From a phage, in the sequence record PZ347775.1: 64,000 bases of DNA. One strand, written 5' to 3'. A program made the position numbers and the translations under genes. The notes beneath the pieces are model-generated. The model was not told the origin of the DNA. It saw only the letters and a program-made list of their open reading frames with translations, and searched no databases. This document shows, piece by piece, positions 2,912-43,827 of the stretch (position 1 is its first letter; each line of letters starts with the position of its first letter).

Positions 2912-4136
<1,225 letters not shown>

Positions 4137-4139
4137 TTA

Positions 4140-4370
4140 TTATTTCTCAACCAATGATTGAATATAATCATGCAAGTCTTTAGATGCTTTACCCCACTTA
4201 TTTTGGTATTCATTTTTAAGATTAGCCCGAGATTGAGCTAATAAAACATCATTAGTTGGAGGTAAAGATTCTAACCGTTGAATCTGGCGTCCATAAATCA
4301 TTGCAGCCATCTCGGATTCATAAATCAATCCTTTGAGATGTTCAAATTGATGCCATGAAATCATTTGCAT
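4140..4370 (-). CDS. hypothetical protein (76 aa)
   Basis: ORF track. Confidence 0.5.
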   Translation of the reverse strand: MQMISWHQFEHLKGLIYESEMAAMIYGRQIQRLESLPPTNDVLLAQSRANLKNEYQNKWGKASKDLHDYIQSLVEK

Positions 4371-30854: not shown

Positions 30855-31004
30855 TTACTGCATGACTGTGATAACTGTCATGATAACACGTTGAATGCCG
30901 AACGCAAGAAGACCTCCTGCTACGGCTGGAACAACACCTAAACCCGCCAGTAAAATGCTACCAGATACTAATGCCGCGCTTGTAATACCTATAAATGGAC
31001 TCAT
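30855..31004 (-). CDS. small hydrophobic protein (49 aa)
   Basis: Hand-read ORF MSPFIGITSAALVSGSILLAGLGVVPAVAGG...; start overlaps gene 52 stop; below ORF-track size cutoff. Confidence 0.4.
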   Translation of the reverse strand: MSPFIGITSAALVSGSILLAGLGVVPAVAGGLLAFGIQRVIMTVITVMQ

Positions 31005-32329
31005 TTGATTTCCTCTAAATCTTTGGTGTATTCTGTAACTACATCAGTAGTTTTCCAATATTCGTTTTCTTCTTTCTTAGCTTTAGCTTCTTCAGCAAGT
31101 TTCTTTGCTTCATCAGAAGTCATATGAAAAATATTCATTCCGACTAGTTTATCAACATAAGAAGAATACATATCAATTTTAGAAAGTTCTTCGGTCAGTT
31201 CTTTGCGAGTTTTACCTTGCACAACAATTTCACCTGAAATTACTTTCTTAATGAAATGTGCCTTGGCAAAGGCTAAACGAAATGCTGATTCAGTTTCTTT
31301 GATTTTGTTATCAATTCGCTTTTGGACATAAGTTTTACGAACTTCAACAAAGTCTTTAATTAAATCAACTACGTTATCGTAAACTTGTAGCTTTCCTTTC
31401 TCATTAATAACAGTAATATTCTGGGAACGACGCTCAATCAACCCGAAGTCTTTCATGATTTTTGCATGGCGTTCTTCTTCGTTATCGCTCAAAGAATATT
31501 CTTTACGGAATTTAACTTTAAAGCCAAAGCCATGCTCACCACAAGCATCATCCCATGTAATGAAGCCTTTATCTTCAAGCGGGTCTAAGATTTTACTCAC
31601 ATAAGTTTCACGATCATACTTATACGGAATCTCAGTGATATTCATTTGAGTTCGTGAAGTAAACTTGTACGTTCCACGAATTTCATATTGACCGTCAATT
31701 TCAACGACTTCACCACGAAATTCTGGGAATTCTACCTTCGGTTTAGTTACTTTCTTTCCTTGAAGAGCTTGTAATACAGCTTTCTTAACAGAAGAAACGC
31801 TATGAGGAAGAATGTAAGTTGCATAACCAGTTGCAATACCGGAAACACCATTAAGAAGAACAGTAGGAATAATAGGCAAATAGAAAGCAGGAGGAATGTG
31901 TTCTTTATCTTGATGTACCGGAGCATATTCAGTATCTTTATATACACTATAGAAATTTTTACTTACACGAGCAAAAATATAACGACTTGCTGCTGCTTTT
32001 TGGACAGTACGAGAACCAAAGTTTCCTTGACCATCTAACAAAGGAAAGTTATTATTCCAAGTATTAGCCATCAAAGCCCCCGCGTCTTGCGCAGAGTTTT
32101 CACCATGATGATATCCAAGGTCAGCTACACCACCTGCAATAGAAGCGAGTTTGTGAAACTTATCTTTATTTCCTCGCGCCAAATCAAGAGCTCGAGCAAT
32201 AACAAATCGTTGGACTGGCTTAAATCCATCAATCATATTTGGAATAGCACGATTTTCAACCGTGTACATAGCATAAGCCAATGCTTCATTATCAATGATA
32301 CTTTTTAAATCGCGATTATTCAGTTGCAT
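31001..32329 (-). CDS. 52: DNA topoisomerase II medium subunit gp52 (GyrA-like cleavage domain)
   Basis: 442 aa; GyrA/ParC-like N-terminal cleavage core. Confidence 0.95.
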   Translation of the reverse strand: MQLNNRDLKSIIDNEALAYAMYTVENRAIPNMIDGFKPVQRFVIARALDLARGNKDKFHKLASIAGGVADLGYHHGENSAQDAGALMANTWNNNFPLLDGQGNFGSRTVQKAAASRYIFARVSKNFYSVYKDTEYAPVHQDKEHIPPAFYLPIIPTVLLNGVSGIATGYATYILPHSVSSVKKAVLQALQGKKVTKPKVEFPEFRGEVVEIDGQYEIRGTYKFTSRTQMNITEIPYKYDRETYVSKILDPLEDKGFITWDDACGEHGFGFKVKFRKEYSLSDNEEERHAKIMKDFGLIERRSQNITVINEKGKLQVYDNVVDLIKDFVEVRKTYVQKRIDNKIKETESAFRLAFAKAHFIKKVISGEIVVQGKTRKELTEELSKIDMYSSYVDKLVGMNIFHMTSDEAKKLAEEAKAKKEENEYWKTTDVVTEYTKDLEEIK

Positions 32330-32333
32330 AAAT

Positions 32334-32474
32334 TTACCATACTAGTGAATGTAGTGCCATAATAACATCAGAAATGAAAAGCACGACTTGAATTAATCCG
32401 AACATTACTCCATAATATAGTGCTACCAATAAAGCAGCAAGGGCTACTGAGTAGCCCAAGATTTTCTTAATCAT
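32334..32474 (-). CDS. small membrane protein (46 aa)
   Basis: Hand-read ORF MIKKILGYSVALAALLVALYYGV...; stop 5 nt from gene 52 start. Confidence 0.4.
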   Translation of the reverse strand: MIKKILGYSVALAALLVALYYGVMFGLIQVVLFISDVIMALHSLVW

Positions 32475-32625
32475 TAGTAGATAACAACACAAATGTTAAA
32501 TATGCACACATACCCTGAGCTAAAGCTTGCGAAAACACACTGCTGGCATCAATACAGATAGTTAAAACGCATGCTACTATCCAACAAATAAATGAAATAA
32601 CTCCTAATAATTTTGCAATATTCAT
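32467..32625 (-). CDS. ac: probable Ac (acridine sensitivity membrane protein)
   Basis: Hand-read 52-aa hydrophobic ORF MNIAKLLGVISFICWIVACVL...; between stp and 52 as in T4. Confidence 0.5.
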   Translation of the reverse strand: MNIAKLLGVISFICWIVACVLTICIDASSVFSQALAQGMCAYLTFVLLSTND

Positions 32626-32632
32626 ATTTTCC

Positions 32633-32713
32633 TCACTGGCGTCCGAAGACGCCTTTAGTTTTAAGATTGTTACGATAGAACTGCATCACGTGTTCGTTAT
32701 GGAAATTACTCAT
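32633..32713 (-). CDS. stp: Stp peptide (activator of host PrrC anticodon nuclease)
   Basis: Hand-read 26-aa [29 protein letters not shown]; start overlaps ndd stop; matches T4 Stp as I recall it. Confidence 0.7.
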
Positions 32714-33168
32714 TAATATGCCTGCAAAACAAATTTAAAGTTATCAGCCAACATACGGTTCATTTCTTCAAGTGTTTGATACTCAGAATGATGATTACGA
32801 GTAAACGCCAAAGCTAACTGACCCTTTCCAAATCCCGTCGTCAGAGGTTTCATCTTAGAAGCAGGCAAATAAAATACTGTATATGGAACATTGTTATTTG
32901 CAATAGTACGCGCAAGCTGAGATCGACGCTGGCGAATATGACTTAGAACTGCACTGAATCCTTGCTTAGAACGCTGATTACCTACATAAAATCGTGCAGA
33001 TACACACGGATTATCAAATGGACCGCCAAATTTGCTCACTAAAAAGTAAAATCCAGGTTTAGATAAAATATCTTTATGTGGAACTCCCAAAAACCATTCA
33101 CCGTTCTTGATTGTACCAATAACGGTAGCGCCTGCATTGTTCAGATCAGTAACAGTCATATATTTCAT
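32713..33168 (-). CDS. ndd: nucleoid disruption protein Ndd
   Basis: 151 aa from [11 protein letters not shown] (track ORF trimmed); AGAGGA SD. Confidence 0.8.
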
Positions 33169-33228
33169 ATTAATTTCCTCTAAATTATTTTCTACTCCAA
33201 GGCCGCATGAATACACACGGCCATTAAA

Positions 33229-33444
33229 TTAATCATCGCAGTCGACGCTTAATTCCCAGAACTCTTCTACAGTATAAGTTTCAGTATCATTTTCAATACA
33301 GAAACGTTCATTGCTGTTATTTGCTAAAGTAGCGTTAACTGTCATTTTCTCGCTAGTGCTTTTAAGAGGCGAAATACGAATTAACTGATCACCATTATCT
33401 AAGCAAAAAATTTCACCAACTTTTACATCTTTAAAGATTTTCAT
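33229..33444 (-). CDS. hypothetical protein (71 aa)
   Basis: ORF track. Confidence 0.5.
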   Translation of the reverse strand: MKIFKDVKVGEIFCLDNGDQLIRISPLKSTSEKMTVNATLANNSNERFCIENDTETYTVEEFWELSVDCDD

Positions 33445-33559
33445 AATTCACCTCAAGGAGTATAAAATCCAAATGCAGTTGTTGACCATCCCATCCAATA
33501 TGGGAAATTTGCACCAATGTAAAACATAAGAATATAAAACCAAATGCTTAGTAAATTCA

Positions 33560-33757
33560 TTATTTTACACCATTCCAAATTGTTTCAACCACAGATTTTA
33601 AGCCATTTTGGTGAATATCCATTCCGACAACTGCCATCAAATAGATTCCAACTACAACTGAACCTAAGGCAAAAATCAGCATGAAAATGAATAAAGCTGG
33701 AAAAATATTATCGAAAAACCATTCAATAAATGTAAAAGCACTGCGTTTACGCTTCAT
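33560..33757 (-). CDS. small membrane protein (about 65 aa)
   Basis: Track ORF trimmed to MKRKRSAF with GAGGA SD; two hydrophobic segments. Confidence 0.45.
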   Translation of the reverse strand: MKRKRSAFTFIEWFFDNIFPALFIFMLIFALGSVVVGIYLMAVVGMDIHQNGLKSVVETIWNGVK

Positions 33758-33764
33758 ATTTTCC

Positions 33765-33878
33765 TCACATAAATCCAAAGTAAGCGTTTAATACATCAAT
33801 CATTAAAACGATTGGGAATATACTCAAAACTACTAGTATTATAACTACATTCCATATAGCTTTAACAATATTTTTCAT
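33765..33878 (-). CDS. small membrane peptide (about 37 aa)
   Basis: MKNIVKAIWNVVIILVVLSIFPIVLMIDVLNAYFGFM; track ORF extends spuriously through promoter. Confidence 0.35.
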   Translation of the reverse strand: MKNIVKAIWNVVIILVVLSIFPIVLMIDVLNAYFGFM

Positions 33879-33906
33879 TTTCTGTTCCTCCGTAGTTGAT
33901 AAGATA

Positions 33907-33936
33907 ATAATACCACAGAGGAACAGTCTTGTAAAC
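33907..33936 (-). promoter_or_regulatory. sigma70 early promoter (GTTTAC -35, TATTAT -10)
   Basis: Reverse complement GTTTAC-18nt-TATTAT; conserved cassette-like downstream leader. Confidence 0.5.
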
Positions 33937-34121
33937 AACTTTTTTAAAAATATTCGTAATAAATGTGAATGCCAATCACTACTGCCGAAACTTGCGCAAC
34001 CCACCACGCACACGCAATAAGTACAGAATTCAAAATTTTCATAATAACCTCATCACAAAAGTAAATGTTAAACAAATTAATGGAATACTAATTAACCAAA
34101 TAAAACACCACCATAATGAAC

Positions 34122-34394
34122 TCATAGTTCAATCTCAGCGATTTTCATTTCATTACTACTAATAGACGCTTTAAGACTATCTGAAAGAATTACATTCCAG
34201 TGGTCATTCATATGACCATTAACTAAGCGTGTAATTTCTTCGGGAGTTGAAAAATAAGGCGTATCAGACTCCCAGTGCGATAGTCCCAAGCGAGTATAAA
34301 TCATACCTTCATCATCGCTAGAATATTCAACTGACACAAACTCATCAGTTATTTTATGCTTAGCGTAATAAAATTTAAATTTCATTTTACTCAA
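34122..34394 (-). CDS. hypothetical protein (90 aa)
   Basis: ORF track. Confidence 0.5.
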   Translation of the reverse strand: MSKMKFKFYYAKHKITDEFVSVEYSSDDEGMIYTRLGLSHWESDTPYFSTPEEITRLVNGHMNDHWNVILSDSLKASISSNEMKIAEIEL

Positions 34395-34597
34395 TAATCC
34401 GCTAAAAGATCGACGATTGCATCACGAAGACACTTATTCGCAATACGCTTAAGAGCAATTTCAGTTTCTGGAGCATTTTGAATAATCATTGAATTCAATT
34501 CAGCCTCAGCAAACTGAAGTTCTTTGACTAATTCAGCTTTATATTTTCCTTGCCCTTTCTTAGCTTTTGCTCGTTTTAATTCAGCTGTAGTAAACAT
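34391..34597 (-). CDS. hypothetical protein (about 68 aa)
   Basis: Track ORF trimmed to MFTTAELK; upstream part of track ORF is the promoter cassette. Confidence 0.5.
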   Translation of the reverse strand: MFTTAELKRAKAKKGQGKYKAELVKELQFAEAELNSMIIQNAPETEIALKRIANKCLRDAIVDLLADY

Positions 34598-34631
34598 TTT
34601 ATTCTCCAAATCCGCATCAGTTGATAGTTGT

Positions 34632-34661
34632 ATAGTACCACAGTCCTTGTGGTTTGTAAAC
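34632..34661 (-). promoter_or_regulatory. sigma70 early promoter (GTTTAC -35, TACTAT -10), cassette copy B
   Basis: Reverse complement GTTTAC-18nt-TACTAT; 43-nt downstream leader nearly identical to copy at 61964-62006. Confidence 0.55.
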
Positions 34662-34677
34662 CGTTTTGTGAAAATTT

Positions 34678-35235
34678 TTAAATGGAAAGATACCATCCGT
34701 TGTAGTTGCTTTTTCTTACAACTTTACGAAGGTCTTCTCTATCACCGATGAACTTCGGAGTGTACTGGATGACACCTGGATGAATTTCTTTAGTGTTGAA
34801 TATAATTATACAGTCAGCGACTTGGTGATTCAGAATGGGCCCTAGATTTATTCCAGAACCGTATGGATACTCTCCGCTGCATCCGGTTGTTACCGAAATC
34901 CAACGTGAGTCAGTTTGGTGTGTCTTAACTTCTACACGAAGCCCGCAATATCTTGGATGCGCCAATACATCCCATGCGTATGTATACGGGTCATTAACAT
35001 CCTCTTGGCCTTTGTTAACATACCCGCTCAGCCAATCTGCTACAAAAAACTCTGCATACACAGCGATACGGCATCTTTCGATAACTTCTGCTTTATCCTG
35101 ATTAGGATTTTGTTTTAAAGAGTATCTTGCTGTATCAGCAATTTTGACCTTCATTTCACTAGTCAAATCATTGTTCGATAGGGTAAATGTTGGAATCTGA
35201 AATAGTCTCTGTAAACCCGGATTCGTTTTCTGCAT
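34678..35235 (-). CDS. denB: endonuclease IV
   Basis: 185 aa as T4 DenB; adjacent to rIIB. Confidence 0.75.
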   Translation of the reverse strand: MQKTNPGLQRLFQIPTFTLSNNDLTSEMKVKIADTARYSLKQNPNQDKAEVIERCRIAVYAEFFVADWLSGYVNKGQEDVNDPYTYAWDVLAHPRYCGLRVEVKTHQTDSRWISVTTGCSGEYPYGSGINLGPILNHQVADCIIIFNTKEIHPGVIQYTPKFIGDREDLRKVVRKSNYNGWYLSI

Positions 35236-35300
35236 TAAACTTTCCTTTTACGTCGGAATCACTGATATTCATATAATAAATCATAGTTTCTCTTAAAACA

Positions 35301-35317
35301 AAAGGGCCGAAGCCCTT
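35301..35317 (-). terminator. UUCG-loop hairpin followed by U-rich tract
   Basis: mRNA aaagggc-UUCG-gcccuuu then uguuuu; lies 4 nt past stop of the 64-aa ORF. Confidence 0.5.
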
Positions 35318-35321
35318 TATT

Positions 35322-35516
35322 TTATTTGAATTGTGCAATTCTTTTCTCTAAACAATCTGCATAAGATTTCATTGAGATAAACTGCGAAAGCAGTAATTCT
35401 TGCTCGACTTCATTAATCGTTAGAAACTTTGTGCTTTCTAAAAATTTGCTTAGTGCATTAATTTTGAGCATTAATTGATCGTATTCTTCTTTTACTCGTG
35501 CTTGATAACCTAACAT
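35322..35516 (-). CDS. hypothetical protein (64 aa)
   Basis: ORF track; AAGGA SD; C-terminus ...IAQFK mirrors rIIB C-terminus ...TEQFK. Confidence 0.5.
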   Translation of the reverse strand: MLGYQARVKEEYDQLMLKINALSKFLESTKFLTINEVEQELLLSQFISMKSYADCLEKRIAQFK

Positions 35517-35530
35517 AATTTTCCTTAGTT

Positions 35531-35546
35531 AAGGGCCGAAGCCCTT
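35531..35546 (-). promoter_or_regulatory. UUCG-loop hairpin at rIIB 3' end (copy of the 35301 hairpin)
   Basis: Identical 16-nt aagggccgaagccctt; overlaps rIIB stop; precedes SD of the 64-aa ORF. Confidence 0.45.
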
Positions 35547-36483
35547 ATTTAAATTGTTCAGTAACGTCTTCAACTACTTCGTATTGGCAGGTACGCATTT
35601 TAGCATCGTTGTAATCAATCGGAATTGATACTACATCGCGAGGATGTACTTTAACTTTTACAACTCGGCTGGTTGAACTGCCAAAGTGACGAATATAAGA
35701 TTTAGAACACACATGCAGACCACGAGAACAAGTTTGTGTATCATCGTCATTCACACGAGTACGTGGCATTTTAACTACTTTACCAGGACTGTTATCAAAA
35801 GTATTTGAATGACAGTCAAAGTAATTACTGCGAACTACTTTCCAAGCATAGAAGTAACCGTCTTCTGTAATTTCAATATCGTTTGCTACCAAGAAATCAA
35901 AGAGTCGAGATACCGCTTTTTGGCTCGGGTTTTCTAACAGATTTTCCAAGAACGGAAAATAAAATTCAAAGTTTTCGCCTTTTTCCATCGAATCGAGAAT
36001 ACGATCAACTAAACCAGACCGCAATTCAATATTTTGATAGAACAAGCTTCCACCTTCAATTCGAACATCACCGGAAATATATTTTTCAACAGCGCGACGA
36101 ACGTTAATTTTTTGCGCCGCTTCTTCCAATTTATCTGCAACAAGCAGATTAAGAATTTCCTGGAAGTTTGAATGAGTATTAGGAGTTGCGTTATAAGTTA
36201 CACCGTCAACAGTAATTGAAATGAATTTTTTAGATGCATTCCAAATAATGTCAGATTTAGCAACTGGAGCAATAGCTGCATCGCTCTTAACTGTAACTGT
36301 AATGTCACCGCTAATGGTAACTTTGGAGCGCTCAGCTTCTTCAGCATTTTTCAAAACACGACGGATTGTGTCCACCGATACACCTTGCCAATCAGCCAAT
36401 TCCTGTTGGGTGTAATTACCACTTGAATACAGTTTGACAATTTCAGCTTGTTCGTTTTTGGTCAGGCATTTAATATTGTACAT
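35545..36483 (-). CDS. rIIB: rIIB membrane-associated protein
   Basis: 312 aa as T4 rIIB; immediately downstream of rIIA. Confidence 0.9.
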   Translation of the reverse strand: MYNIKCLTKNEQAEIVKLYSSGNYTQQELADWQGVSVDTIRRVLKNAEEAERSKVTISGDITVTVKSDAAIAPVAKSDIIWNASKKFISITVDGVTYNATPNTHSNFQEILNLLVADKLEEAAQKINVRRAVEKYISGDVRIEGGSLFYQNIELRSGLVDRILDSMEKGENFEFYFPFLENLLENPSQKAVSRLFDFLVANDIEITEDGYFYAWKVVRSNYFDCHSNTFDNSPGKVVKMPRTRVNDDDTQTCSRGLHVCSKSYIRHFGSSTSRVVKVKVHPRDVVSIPIDYNDAKMRTCQYEVVEDVTEQFK

Positions 36484-43669: not shown

Positions 43670-43827
43670 TATTAATTCAAAATAGCTACCACTGCACTAC
43701 GAGGTACTACGCTAAAATCACCTGCATGAACAACGTTCAGAAGTTCAACACGATAAATTTTCATTTTATTATCCTCAGTAGCTATGGTGTTATAATACCA
43801 TAACTAACCGAGGAAGTAAACAACTTT

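Follow-up and report, generated by a model that had tools for sequence, protein, structure and literature searches.

AcrZ, MgrB and MgtS are small membrane-protein regulators of bacteria, and type I toxins (Hok, TisB, Ibs, ShoB and Ldr) are hydrophobic single-helix peptides of 19-50 amino acids (aa). In phage T4, Imm, Sp and rI/rIII/t are small early or membrane-associated proteins that act at the envelope. T4 also carries the ndd.1-ndd.6 cluster, which is already known, has long been annotated and would not surprise a T4 specialist. In this study, an array of six small open reading frames (ORFs) at positions 33229-34125 of a phage sequence (record PZ347775.1) was analyzed; the window hereafter denotes the whole 64,000-nucleotide (nt) stretch of this DNA. 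Judged by sequence, the array consists of the orthologues of T4 ndd.6, ndd.5, ndd.4, ndd.2a/ndd.3, ndd.2 and ndd.1. The best overall explanation is that this ndd cluster encodes five membrane micro-proteins and one soluble protein that serve as accessory modulators, and we assign it a probability of roughly 0.6.

The products of T4 ndd.1 to ndd.6 were given as unknown by Kutter et al. (2018), and many immediate-early small genes were described there as non-essential "monkey wrenches", some of them host-lethal (PMC6071114). Wolfram-Schauerte et al. (2022) placed all ndd.x RNAs in the early class and the ndd.1 protein among the early proteins by mass spectrometry (PMC9697503 supplement). The closest functional precedent is the neighboring T4 protein Ac, which sensitizes E. 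coli to acriflavine when expressed alone; a block of AcrAB-TolC was proposed (bioRxiv 10.1101/2025.06.30.662393), and Ac is also treated as a precedent in PMC13250531. T4 Ac (51 aa) resembles the ndd peptides in size, single hydrophobic helix, neighborhood and early class, but no sequence similarity between them was found in pairwise comparisons against shuffles. The arrangement of such genes has also been described. The promoter-early stem-loop (PeSL) was named by Arbiol et al. (2010), who read the stems as attenuators (PMC2839356), and Comeau et al. (2014) showed this very locus as an example of PeSL-mediated exchange (Fig. 6A of PMC4122927). Our literature searches returned no match for the DUF and PHROG identifiers and no T4 ribosome-profiling study. 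The anti-defence preprint of Ojima et al. and the main texts of the CRISPRi-ART and HIDEN-SEQ papers make no mention of the ndd genes, and a phiR1-RT toxicity screen used ndd itself, as a control only.

The 1.3 kb around the array matched 499 phage records at >90% DNA identity, nearly all of them T4-like phages of Escherichia, Shigella and Yersinia, and the best DNA match to the array surroundings was Shigella phage SH-1 (98.5%). By these matches, the window belongs to Tequatrovirus, that is, to a T4-like phage. In the T4 reference, the minus strand reads rIIB, denB.1, denB, ndd.6, ndd.5, ndd.4, ndd.3, ndd.2a, ndd.2, ndd.1, ndd, stp, ac, 52.1 and gene 52; gene order and strand in the window match this, with the array between denB and ndd. 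The T4 genes (NC_000866, T4p269-T4p275) and the window ORFs share position, order, strand and PHROG families, with a protein identity of 89-100%; the T4 assignments are those of the PMC11879866 supplement, and families 2183, 4135, 2401, 3098, 5011 and 8851 were assigned to the six ORFs with E-values of 1e-17 to 1e-38. The two loci also differ. In place of the ndd.3 and ndd.2a entries of the T4 reference, the window holds one uninterrupted 65-aa gene. Similar to phage PST, it carries two genes, here called orfB and orfA, between denB and ndd.6, both of which T4 lacks. Moreover, the window ndd.4 is without the T4-specific upstream ATG and encodes 37 aa instead of 42 aa. Taken together, the identity of the cluster and the coding character of its ORFs are very probably as described here. 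The features are summarized in Table 1.

Table 1. Features of the ndd region (window positions unless a T4 extract is named)
Feature	Position	Strand	Description
denB	34678-35235		
T4-type early promoter (predicted)	34632-34660	-	TTTACA-N17-TACTAT with TG before the second hexamer; 9/12 matches; just past the denB stop
orfB	34391-34597	-	68 aa, soluble, lysine-rich; PST ORF269 homologue; phrog_4535; GGAG site, duplex -6.4 kcal/mol
orfA	34122-34385	-	87 aa, soluble; PST ORF268 homologue; phrog_2390; stop overlaps ndd.6 start (ATGA, 34122-34125)
ndd.6 orthologue	34039-34125	-	28 aa; one hydrophobic helix; C-terminal Arg
ndd.5 orthologue	33944-34042	-	32 aa; one hydrophobic helix; GAGG Shine-Dalgarno site
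T4 early promoter (predicted)	33907-33936	-	GTTTACA-N17-TGgTATTAT; 10/12 matches, TG present; preceded by an A-tract
15-bp hairpin	33882-33926	-	5' arm 33926-33912 is the promoter spacer; 3' arm 33896-33882 holds the ndd.4 GGAGG
ndd.4 orthologue	33765-33878	-	37 aa; N-terminal MKNIVK, one helix, conserved SIFPIV.MID
65-aa gene (Pfam DUF7248)	33560-33757	-	Basic N-terminus MKRKRS, long hydrophobic helix, tail NGLKSVVETIWNGVK
ndd.2 orthologue	33453-33560	-	35 aa; no charged residues; 34% aromatic
ndd.1 orthologue	33229-33444	-	71 aa; soluble, acidic
ndd	32713-33168		
ac	32467-32625	-	52 aa, small hydrophobic
52.1	32334-32474	-	46 aa, DUF7396, small hydrophobic
gene 52	31001-32329		
T4 "ndd.3"	4049-4129 of NC_000866 extract		
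T4 "ndd.2a"	3933-4055 of NC_000866 extract		

As an earlier note on this DNA, in which the ndd genes went unrecognized, had described, consecutive minus-strand ORFs fill 33229-34125; six were found, of 28-71 aa, and all the peptide starts quoted in that note occur in them. The overlapping stop and start codons also reported there exist at two of the five internal junctions, namely, ndd.6/ndd.5 (ATGA) and 65-aa gene/ndd.2 (TAATG, one base). The other three junctions are gaps of 7 nt (ndd.4/65-aa gene), 8 nt (ndd.2/ndd.1) and 65 nt (ndd.5/ndd.4), the last of which holds a predicted T4 early promoter. A further ATGA overlap, external to the array, joins orfA to ndd.6. The array had been placed downstream of denB; if this is taken to mean adjacent, it does not apply, as two ORFs (68 aa and 87 aa; 34122-34597) intervene in the window.

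The products had been called very hydrophobic, and this is true of five of them, with a grand average of hydropathy (GRAVY) of 0.72-1.81. In the case of the 71-aa ndd.1 product, a GRAVY of -0.42 and a net charge of approximately -8 indicate a soluble acidic protein and not a membrane peptide. Each of the five carries one uncharged stretch of 21-35 residues with a mean Kyte-Doolittle hydropathy of 0.7-2.8, and hence one hydrophobic segment per peptide rather than the "one or two" transmembrane helices proposed earlier. The membrane-helix calls followed a rule of thumb based on the uncharged stretch, the Kyte-Doolittle hydropathy and the flanking charges. All five combine a size of at most about 65 aa with one hydrophobic helix of at least about 20 residues, as in AcrZ, MgrB and Ac. 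By these features, the five products (28, 32, 37, 65 and 35 aa) appear to be genuine single-pass membrane micro-proteins, and the description as small membrane peptides suits five of the six ORFs, the exception being ndd.1.

Several lines of evidence indicate that the ORFs are genes. ATG-initiated ORFs of at least 28 aa fill 91% of the 897 bases, whereas coverage in 2000 dinucleotide-preserving shuffles averaged 25% and never exceeded 76%. The Shine-Dalgarno duplexes reached -6.3 (ndd.5), -9.5 (ndd.4), -6.2 (65-aa gene), -5.2 (ndd.2) and -6.9 kcal/mol (ndd.1), against a background mean of -1.7 over 246 other nearby ATGs, 14% of which reach -4 or lower. The ratio of nonsynonymous to synonymous polymorphism (pN/pS) was computed per named frame on an alignment of 16 Tequatrovirus sequences and was 0.14 for ndd.6, 0.05 for ndd.5, 0.08 for the 65-aa gene, 0.14 for ndd.2 and 0.09 for ndd.1. 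In the other two same-strand frames it was at least 0.57, or undefined where pS was zero. These ratios point to purifying selection on five of the six ORFs, in the named frame only. Variable sites fell at codon position 3 in 24 of 31 cases in the 65-aa gene and in 9 of 10 cases in ndd.5. The frames were intact in the 16-18 sequences read apart from three lesions, which were found in the T4 reference, in one T2 record and in one IMG/VR contig (a 2-nt insertion at the ndd.6 end).

Each peptide was found by tblastn in 494-596 phage records, almost always at full length. Loci from other genera were obtained from three Gaprivervirus phages (SP18, TH57 and UPEC07), one Dhakavirus phage (dhaeg) and the unclassified CUA3, and the order recurring in them was orfA, ndd.6, ndd.4, (65-aa gene), ndd.1 and ndd. 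Their identities to the window were 42-48% for ndd.6, 58-64% for ndd.4, 41% for the 65-aa gene and 51% for ndd.1; in the gapped CUA3 record, ndd.1 matched at 77% over the first 26 residues only. Neither ndd.5 nor ndd.2 was found in these five loci. Word-indexed protein searches returned T4-like relatives only, and an IMG/VR search with the 65-aa protein gave five loci, in place of which annotated GenBank records were used. The earlier note had held that its proposal would fall if these frames lacked both a translation signal and conservation in related phages. Such signals are present, and the frames are kept in approximately 500 related phages and, in part, in other genera, which supports reading them as genes.

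Other sources of the signal were also considered. Antisense ORFs are not conserved, having lost the start codon or gained stops in relatives, and genes on the opposite strand were rejected on this ground. An Rfam scan of 32200-35600 gave only a chance TarB match (E = 0.5), and non-coding RNA was rejected on this basis. A PADLOC scan returned nothing meaningful for defence or anti-defence families.

Regarding transcription, the predicted promoter at 34660 fits the PST/T4 promoter consensus TTTACW-N17-TAYWAT (PMC4122927). Ten matches to the strict pattern GTTTAC-N15-19-TATNAT were found in the window where 0.5 would be expected, and all ten are on the minus strand, which fits one long early-transcribed region. 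From these sites and the gene order, we infer two immediate-early units. The first would run from promoter 34660 through orfB, orfA, ndd.6 and ndd.5, with translational coupling by the ATGA overlaps at orfA/ndd.6 and ndd.6/ndd.5, and the second from promoter 33936 through ndd.4, the 65-aa gene, ndd.2 and ndd.1.

At the junction of ndd.5 and ndd.4, an AT-rich tract, a sigma-70-like early promoter, a stem-loop, a Shine-Dalgarno site and an ATG lie within approximately 100 bp, which corresponds to the PeSL definition (PMC2839356). As in the PeSL cassettes of T4-type phages, the A-rich tract and promoter are followed by a stem-loop over the spacer/-10 box, a Shine-Dalgarno site and an ATG, and small variable genes are flanked. 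Unlike those cassettes, the 3' arm of the stem is itself the ndd.4 Shine-Dalgarno site and there is no U-run. The hairpin folds at -23.2 kcal/mol (z = -4.6), a value equaled by 0 of 200 shuffles. In all 16 Tequatrovirus sequences, 14-15 of the 15 pairs are kept, changes occurring via G-U wobble. The five other-genus phages have a different stem sequence, CATCTCCAGTGG paired with CTACTGGAGATG, in the same place, so that the spacer is again paired with the Shine-Dalgarno site, and their stems include one fully compensatory G-C to U-A change. Because the cross-genus DNA alignment left the two stems in different columns, the pairs were counted per group by script.

The local transcript would start approximately 7 nt past the -10 box, that is, within the hairpin loop. 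In read-through RNA from upstream, the hairpin would hide the ndd.4 start region, while RNA from the local promoter would lack the 5' arm, leaving the ndd.4 site free to be translated. The placement of the arms thus suggests masking of ndd.4 translation in the longer RNA. Since the 3' arm is the Shine-Dalgarno site and no U-run follows the stem, masking seems at least as likely as a role as attenuator; a terminator scan did not flag the hairpin. A promoter of like design was observed elsewhere in the window (43820; approximately 43759-43820, minus strand), where the spacer CCTCGGTTAGTTATGGT pairs with the Shine-Dalgarno-bearing ACCATAGCTACTGAGG at -23.7 kcal/mol.

Several observations weigh against the cluster being a set of membrane modulators. 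No computed result names a target or partner for the ndd peptides. Hydrophobicity by itself is weak evidence, as hydrophobic small ORFs are common by chance in T-rich DNA: T makes up 39% of the coding strand, and a GRAVY of at least 0.7 is reached by 24% of all 25-80-aa ATG-ORFs of the window. The Shine-Dalgarno duplex of ndd.6 is weak (-2.7 kcal/mol) and its start overlaps the orfA stop, so that translation would have to rely on coupling. The pN/pS of ndd.4 is 1.42 within Tequatrovirus, a value resting on 8 variable sites only, with conservative changes and very low synonymous diversity. The PeSL authors see stems like that before ndd.4 as transcription attenuators. In T4 proteomics, the ndd.2 to ndd.6 proteins were undetected (class NA), which the authors ascribe to small size or low expression, citing the 5-kDa P39249 (Ndd.4 in their table) as an example too small for liquid chromatography-mass spectrometry (PMC9697503). 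Finally, T4 knock-down and transposon screens show no phenotype for any single ndd.x gene. Every ndd.x gene was "Not Fit" in CRISPRi-ART (PMC11879866 supplement) and "Non-essential" in HIDEN-SEQ, with 86-100% of TA sites hit (bioRxiv 10.1101/2025.11.20.689424 supplement), and one conditional table of the HIDEN-SEQ study shows no ndd.x effect (q = 1.0; bioRxiv 10.1101/2025.11.20.689424). The ndd.x genes are dispensable on laboratory hosts.

Some of these points also favor a reading in which the ORFs arose by chance or are decaying in T-rich intergenic DNA, are carried on early read-through RNA and yield no functional product. Nearly a quarter of the small ATG-ORFs of the window are as hydrophobic, no protein was detected for ndd.2-ndd.6, no knock-down phenotype was seen in the T4 data, and lesions occur in single isolates (the T4 reference frameshift, the T2 stop codon and fusions). 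However, purifying selection acts in the named frame only, the ORF packing exceeds that of all 2000 shuffles, and Shine-Dalgarno sites are present. Moreover, ndd.6, ndd.4 and the 65-aa gene are kept across genera (41-64%), their W, C and P residues unchanged and their stop/start overlaps preserved, and the DUF7248 tail is kept in very distant members. Non-functional ORFs are therefore extremely improbable; this is the sole rival close to exclusion, and it is close to refuted. The six ORFs are real, selected and early-transcribed genes.

The individual peptides differ in their distribution. ndd.6 (phrog_8851) shares 26 of 28 residues with T4 and occurs in 594 phage records; its orthologues keep W-C-x-I-W...I-P-x-I-C, in which W, C, P and C are conserved across genera. 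ndd.5 (phrog_5011; 31 of 32 residues as in T4) was found in 494 records, 490 of which are at least 90% identical, all with host names typical of T4-like coliphages. Of all peptides in the array, ndd.4 (phrog_3098; 33 of 37 residues; found in 596 records) is conserved most widely, and its relatives carry a precomputed PF26889 assignment. In T4, ndd.4 is annotated with a start that gives 42 aa (MEEQKM...) and uses an ATG found only in the T4/RB59 group (T4 extract approximately 4251-4265). The window and the other Tequatrovirus sequences read have ACG instead, at a codon within the Shine-Dalgarno site/hairpin arm (33879-33896). On this comparison, the conserved ndd.4 start gives 37 aa, correcting the 42-aa T4 model. 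ndd.2 (phrog_4135; 33 of 35 residues) was found in 519 records, 25 of them weak Klebsiella-phage matches, and ndd.1 (phrog_2183) shares 69 of 71 residues with T4.

In public databases, ndd.4 (37 aa) is labeled "naphthalene 1,2-dioxygenase" in many RefSeq/GenBank records, and ndd.2, ndd.5 and ndd.6 are labeled "outer membrane protein". Neither these names nor "periplasmic protein" suit single hydrophobic helices of 28-37 aa with no Pfam domain, and such labels look like propagated localisation guesses or errors; an outer-membrane protein would call for a signal peptide and a beta-barrel, and the dioxygenase for a Rieske/oxygenase domain.

The 65-aa gene deserves separate treatment, as its T4 counterpart is annotated differently. 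The 65-aa protein (phrog_2401) matched PF23906 with 71.9 bits (cutoff 27), residues 6-63 aligning to profile positions 4-57 of 58, and it is identical to T4 at 40 of 40 residues over the ndd.2a part. The T4 reference NC_000866 lacks one base, corresponding to window position 33752, in codon 3 of this ORF. As a result of this one-base gap, T4 is annotated with ndd.3, which is read out of frame, has 26 aa and forms a PHROG singleton (PMC11879866 supplement), and with ndd.2a, which is the last 40 codons read from an internal ATG. A 56-nt probe over the gap had an ungapped match in three records only (X75802, AF158101 and NC_000866). The other 324 probe-matching records all fell in the 95-99% identity band, and every one of them that was listed spans 57 nt, including re-sequenced T4 (OZ209023 and OZ209057) and T4T (HM137666). 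A 57-nt span of the 56-nt probe means one extra base relative to the T4 reference, and in OZ209023 a 198-nt coding sequence is annotated at the locus. From these alignments, ndd.3 and ndd.2a are evidently one 65-aa gene, with the gap confined to the T4 reference lineage; the gap stems from either an error in sequencing or a mutation peculiar to that stock. A different lesion was observed in T2 record PV648363 (2501-2695 of the extract), where a GGA-to-TGA change in codon 45 of the 65-aa gene cuts off the conserved tail.

A profile search of 1.84 billion representative proteins returned approximately 20 further small DUF7248 proteins of 47-76 aa, and the members found include proteins of T4-like phages of Serratia and Kosakonia. 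In an alignment of 23 members, a basic N-terminus, one hydrophobic helix and the tail GLKxVxExxWxG were shared, and the window protein conforms to this pattern. AlphaFold2 predicted a short helix at residues 4-17 and a long one at residues 19-64, with a mean predicted local distance difference test (pLDDT) score of 80. Tandem duplication was examined in 21 pairwise comparisons against shuffles, which gave no paralogy among the peptides, Ac and 52.1; only the pair of ndd.4 and the 65-aa protein stood out, with an uncorrected p = 0.017 owing to an IWN motif present in both, and this was lost after multiple-testing correction. The tail NGLKSVVETIWNGVK (33563-33607) resembles the ndd.4 N-terminus KNIVKAIWNVV (33843-33878), perhaps merely as a shared amphipathic-helix pattern. 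In Shigella phage Sf25, a 62-aa protein is an in-frame fusion of ndd.4 residues 1-31 with the C-terminal half of the 65-aa protein and bears both PF26889 and PF23906.

Upstream of the array, the slot between denB and ndd.6 (34122-34660) varies between phages. The window, UFV-AREG1 and PST contain orfB and orfA, most relatives read contain orfA only, T2 contains orfB only, and T4 and RB59 contain neither; in PhiZZ6 and phage 132, the slot holds an 87-aa gene too divergent for blastn alignment to orfA. Phages without orfA, such as T4, retain an 8-codon remnant (MKIAEIEL) ending in an ATGA that overlaps the ndd.6 start. The ndd.6 start codon varies across genera (ATG, TTG or GTG), but its NTGA overlap with the orfA stop is always kept, in all genera examined. 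One metagenomic protein of 115 aa is an in-frame orfA::ndd.6 fusion, which comes from a single contig and may be an assembly error. This arrangement suggests that orfA and ndd.6 form a two-part module with ndd.6 as a membrane anchor. The structure model of orfA was unreliable, and no fold match was found with it.

In PST, ndd.6 is present but unannotated, and a stretch of 243 nt that carries no annotation could accommodate ndd.5. The difference between T4 and PST thus appears to be an insertion or deletion of orfB/orfA and not an exchange of ndd.4/.5. Accordingly, the published "exchange of ndd.4/.5 for ORF268/269" (Comeau 2014) looks like an insertion/deletion combined with missing annotation. 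PeSL sites may mediate cassette exchange at this locus; as indirect evidence, the flanking gene content varies between phages, and a published example lies here.

Returning to function, the preferred explanation of the cluster as accessory modulators can be outlined as follows. Within the first minutes of infection, the peptides would enter the inner membrane of the host; the positive-inside rule would place ndd.4, ndd.5 and the 65-aa protein N-in/C-out and the ndd.6 C-terminus inside. Each peptide would then bind and alter a host or prophage membrane protein or process, on the model of Ac, AcrZ and MgrB. The likeness of the ndd peptides to AcrZ, MgrB and MgtS is an analogy of mechanism, not homology. 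As accessory genes, they would be dispensable on laboratory strains, kept by selection in nature, being of conditional benefit on natural hosts, and swapped between phages as cassettes flanked by promoters. The specific mechanism, in which the peptides act on inner-membrane components of the host or of prophages, is proposed tentatively, with somewhat less than even odds. The earlier note had suggested membrane remodelling, superinfection exclusion or a small-toxin function; in PHROG, Pfam and PADLOC scans, none of the peptides showed homology to Imm/Sp, to holins, to type I toxins or to proteins of defence systems.

The deletion data from T4 bear on a different function. The sa-delta-9 deletion, which removes 52.1, ac, stp, ndd, ndd.1-ndd.6 and denB, is viable with 50% of the wild-type yield and abolishes the T4 stimulation of phospholipid synthesis (PMC6071114). 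One or more peptides might thus drive the T4-induced phospholipid change, in which phosphatidylglycerol synthesis rises and phosphatidylethanolamine synthesis falls, via membrane-bound lipid enzymes or their regulation. In line with this, phosphatidylglycerol stimulation is likewise lost in rII-delta-DD2, a deletion that overlaps in part, and earlier work had assigned the protein responsible to the initial 5 minutes after infection (PMC6071114). The RNAs of the ndd.x genes also belong to the early class, and the products are of membrane type. However, the mapping resolves no more than a region of approximately 3.4 kb, to which denB, ndd, ac and 52.1 also belong; several other mutations were present in the strains under comparison; and the review itself gives indirect explanations (PMC6071114). 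Furthermore, the PHROG and Pfam scans showed no similarity to lipid enzymes or regulators. A role in lipid synthesis is therefore distinctly unlikely.

The tail of the 65-aa protein raises the question of competition between phages. It gave weak repeated matches to 9-10 tandem WNGIK-type (xxVWNGIK) repeats in 820-976-aa proteins resembling tape-measure proteins, which we treat as a resemblance of amphipathic motifs and not as homology. If the peptides were factors for superinfection exclusion or inter-phage competition, they would block DNA entry or lysis from without by later phages, as Imm and Sp do. Imm-type proteins have to be made early and to reach the membrane, as these peptides would; laboratory assays with a single phage would not be expected to reveal a phenotype; and the tail, predicted to be periplasmic by the positive-inside rule only, is the part that resembles the repeats. 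Against this, the likeness is that of a short amphipathic motif with a score summed over the 9-10 repeats, and T4 exclusion is already explained by imm and sp. The PHROG and Pfam scans gave no Imm, Sp or exclusion family; compared with Imm, Sp and rI/rIII/t, the ndd peptides showed no homology in these scans, are much shorter, and have one helix and almost no soluble part. We consider an exclusion function quite improbable.

The size and hydrophobicity of the peptides also match those of toxins such as TisB, Hok and Ibs, so that they might be host-lethal "monkey wrenches" that depolarize or permeabilize the inner membrane. T4, however, needs an energized membrane through most of its cycle. The peptides belong to no toxin family in the PHROG, Pfam and PADLOC scans, no antisense RNA or Rfam element was found in 32200-35600, and no ndd.x gene is specifically reported as toxic in the literature searched. 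In contrast to type I toxin genes, those of the ndd cluster are part of an operon of a lytic phage, with early promoters and Shine-Dalgarno sites of the usual kind. Membership in a type I toxin-antitoxin system was rejected, as there was neither an antisense RNA partner nor a relevant Pfam/PADLOC family, and general toxicity is highly improbable.

A more elaborate version of the modulator explanation would join several of the elements described above. In this joint reading, the cluster would supply a set of micro-inhibitors with specific targets, each of which puts a different inner-membrane machine of the host or of a prophage out of action; a transporter, a defence sensor or the route by which rival phages enter would be examples. 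Soluble OrfA and the 28-aa Ndd.6 helix, as its membrane anchor, would form a translationally coupled pair; the invariant tail GLKSVVExIWNG, predicted to lie outside the cytoplasm, would serve as a docking motif, possibly mimicking tape-measure repeats; and the hairpin would confine ndd.4 synthesis to the immediate-early minutes. The orfA/Ndd.6 and DUF7248 sub-modules are not described in the literature searched. This combination as a whole is unlikely.

Beyond the array, ac and 52.1 overlap by 8 nt, and 52.1 is 83-93% identical across genera, far above the ndd peptides. The cluster of small membrane proteins therefore extends past 33229-34125 to include ac and 52.1. Between ndd.1 and ndd, a GC-rich 9-bp hairpin (GGCCGUGUG/CAUGCGGCC; 33201-33222, minus strand) was observed, with the same sequence in T4 and no U-run; the 71-nt region folds at -16.8 kcal/mol (z = -2.7).

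As a discovery, the cluster itself carries little weight, as its genes are in the T4 annotation, in PHROG/Pfam families and in recent genome-wide T4 screens. The useful by-products are corrected gene models for ndd.3/ndd.2a and ndd.4, the promoter/Shine-Dalgarno hairpin and the orfA-ndd.6 coupling. With regard to the T4 reference, the correction is that ndd.3 is not a gene, ndd.2a is what the truncation leaves of the end of a 65-aa DUF7248 protein, and ndd.4 in its conserved form has 37 aa. Selection on the peptides, together with their partial conservation across genera, makes them worth targeted experiments, for which proteomics and fitness screens on laboratory strains are no substitute. 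An old question is also narrowed, in that the gene behind the T4 stimulation of phosphatidylglycerol synthesis maps to a deletable region that includes the ndd cluster.

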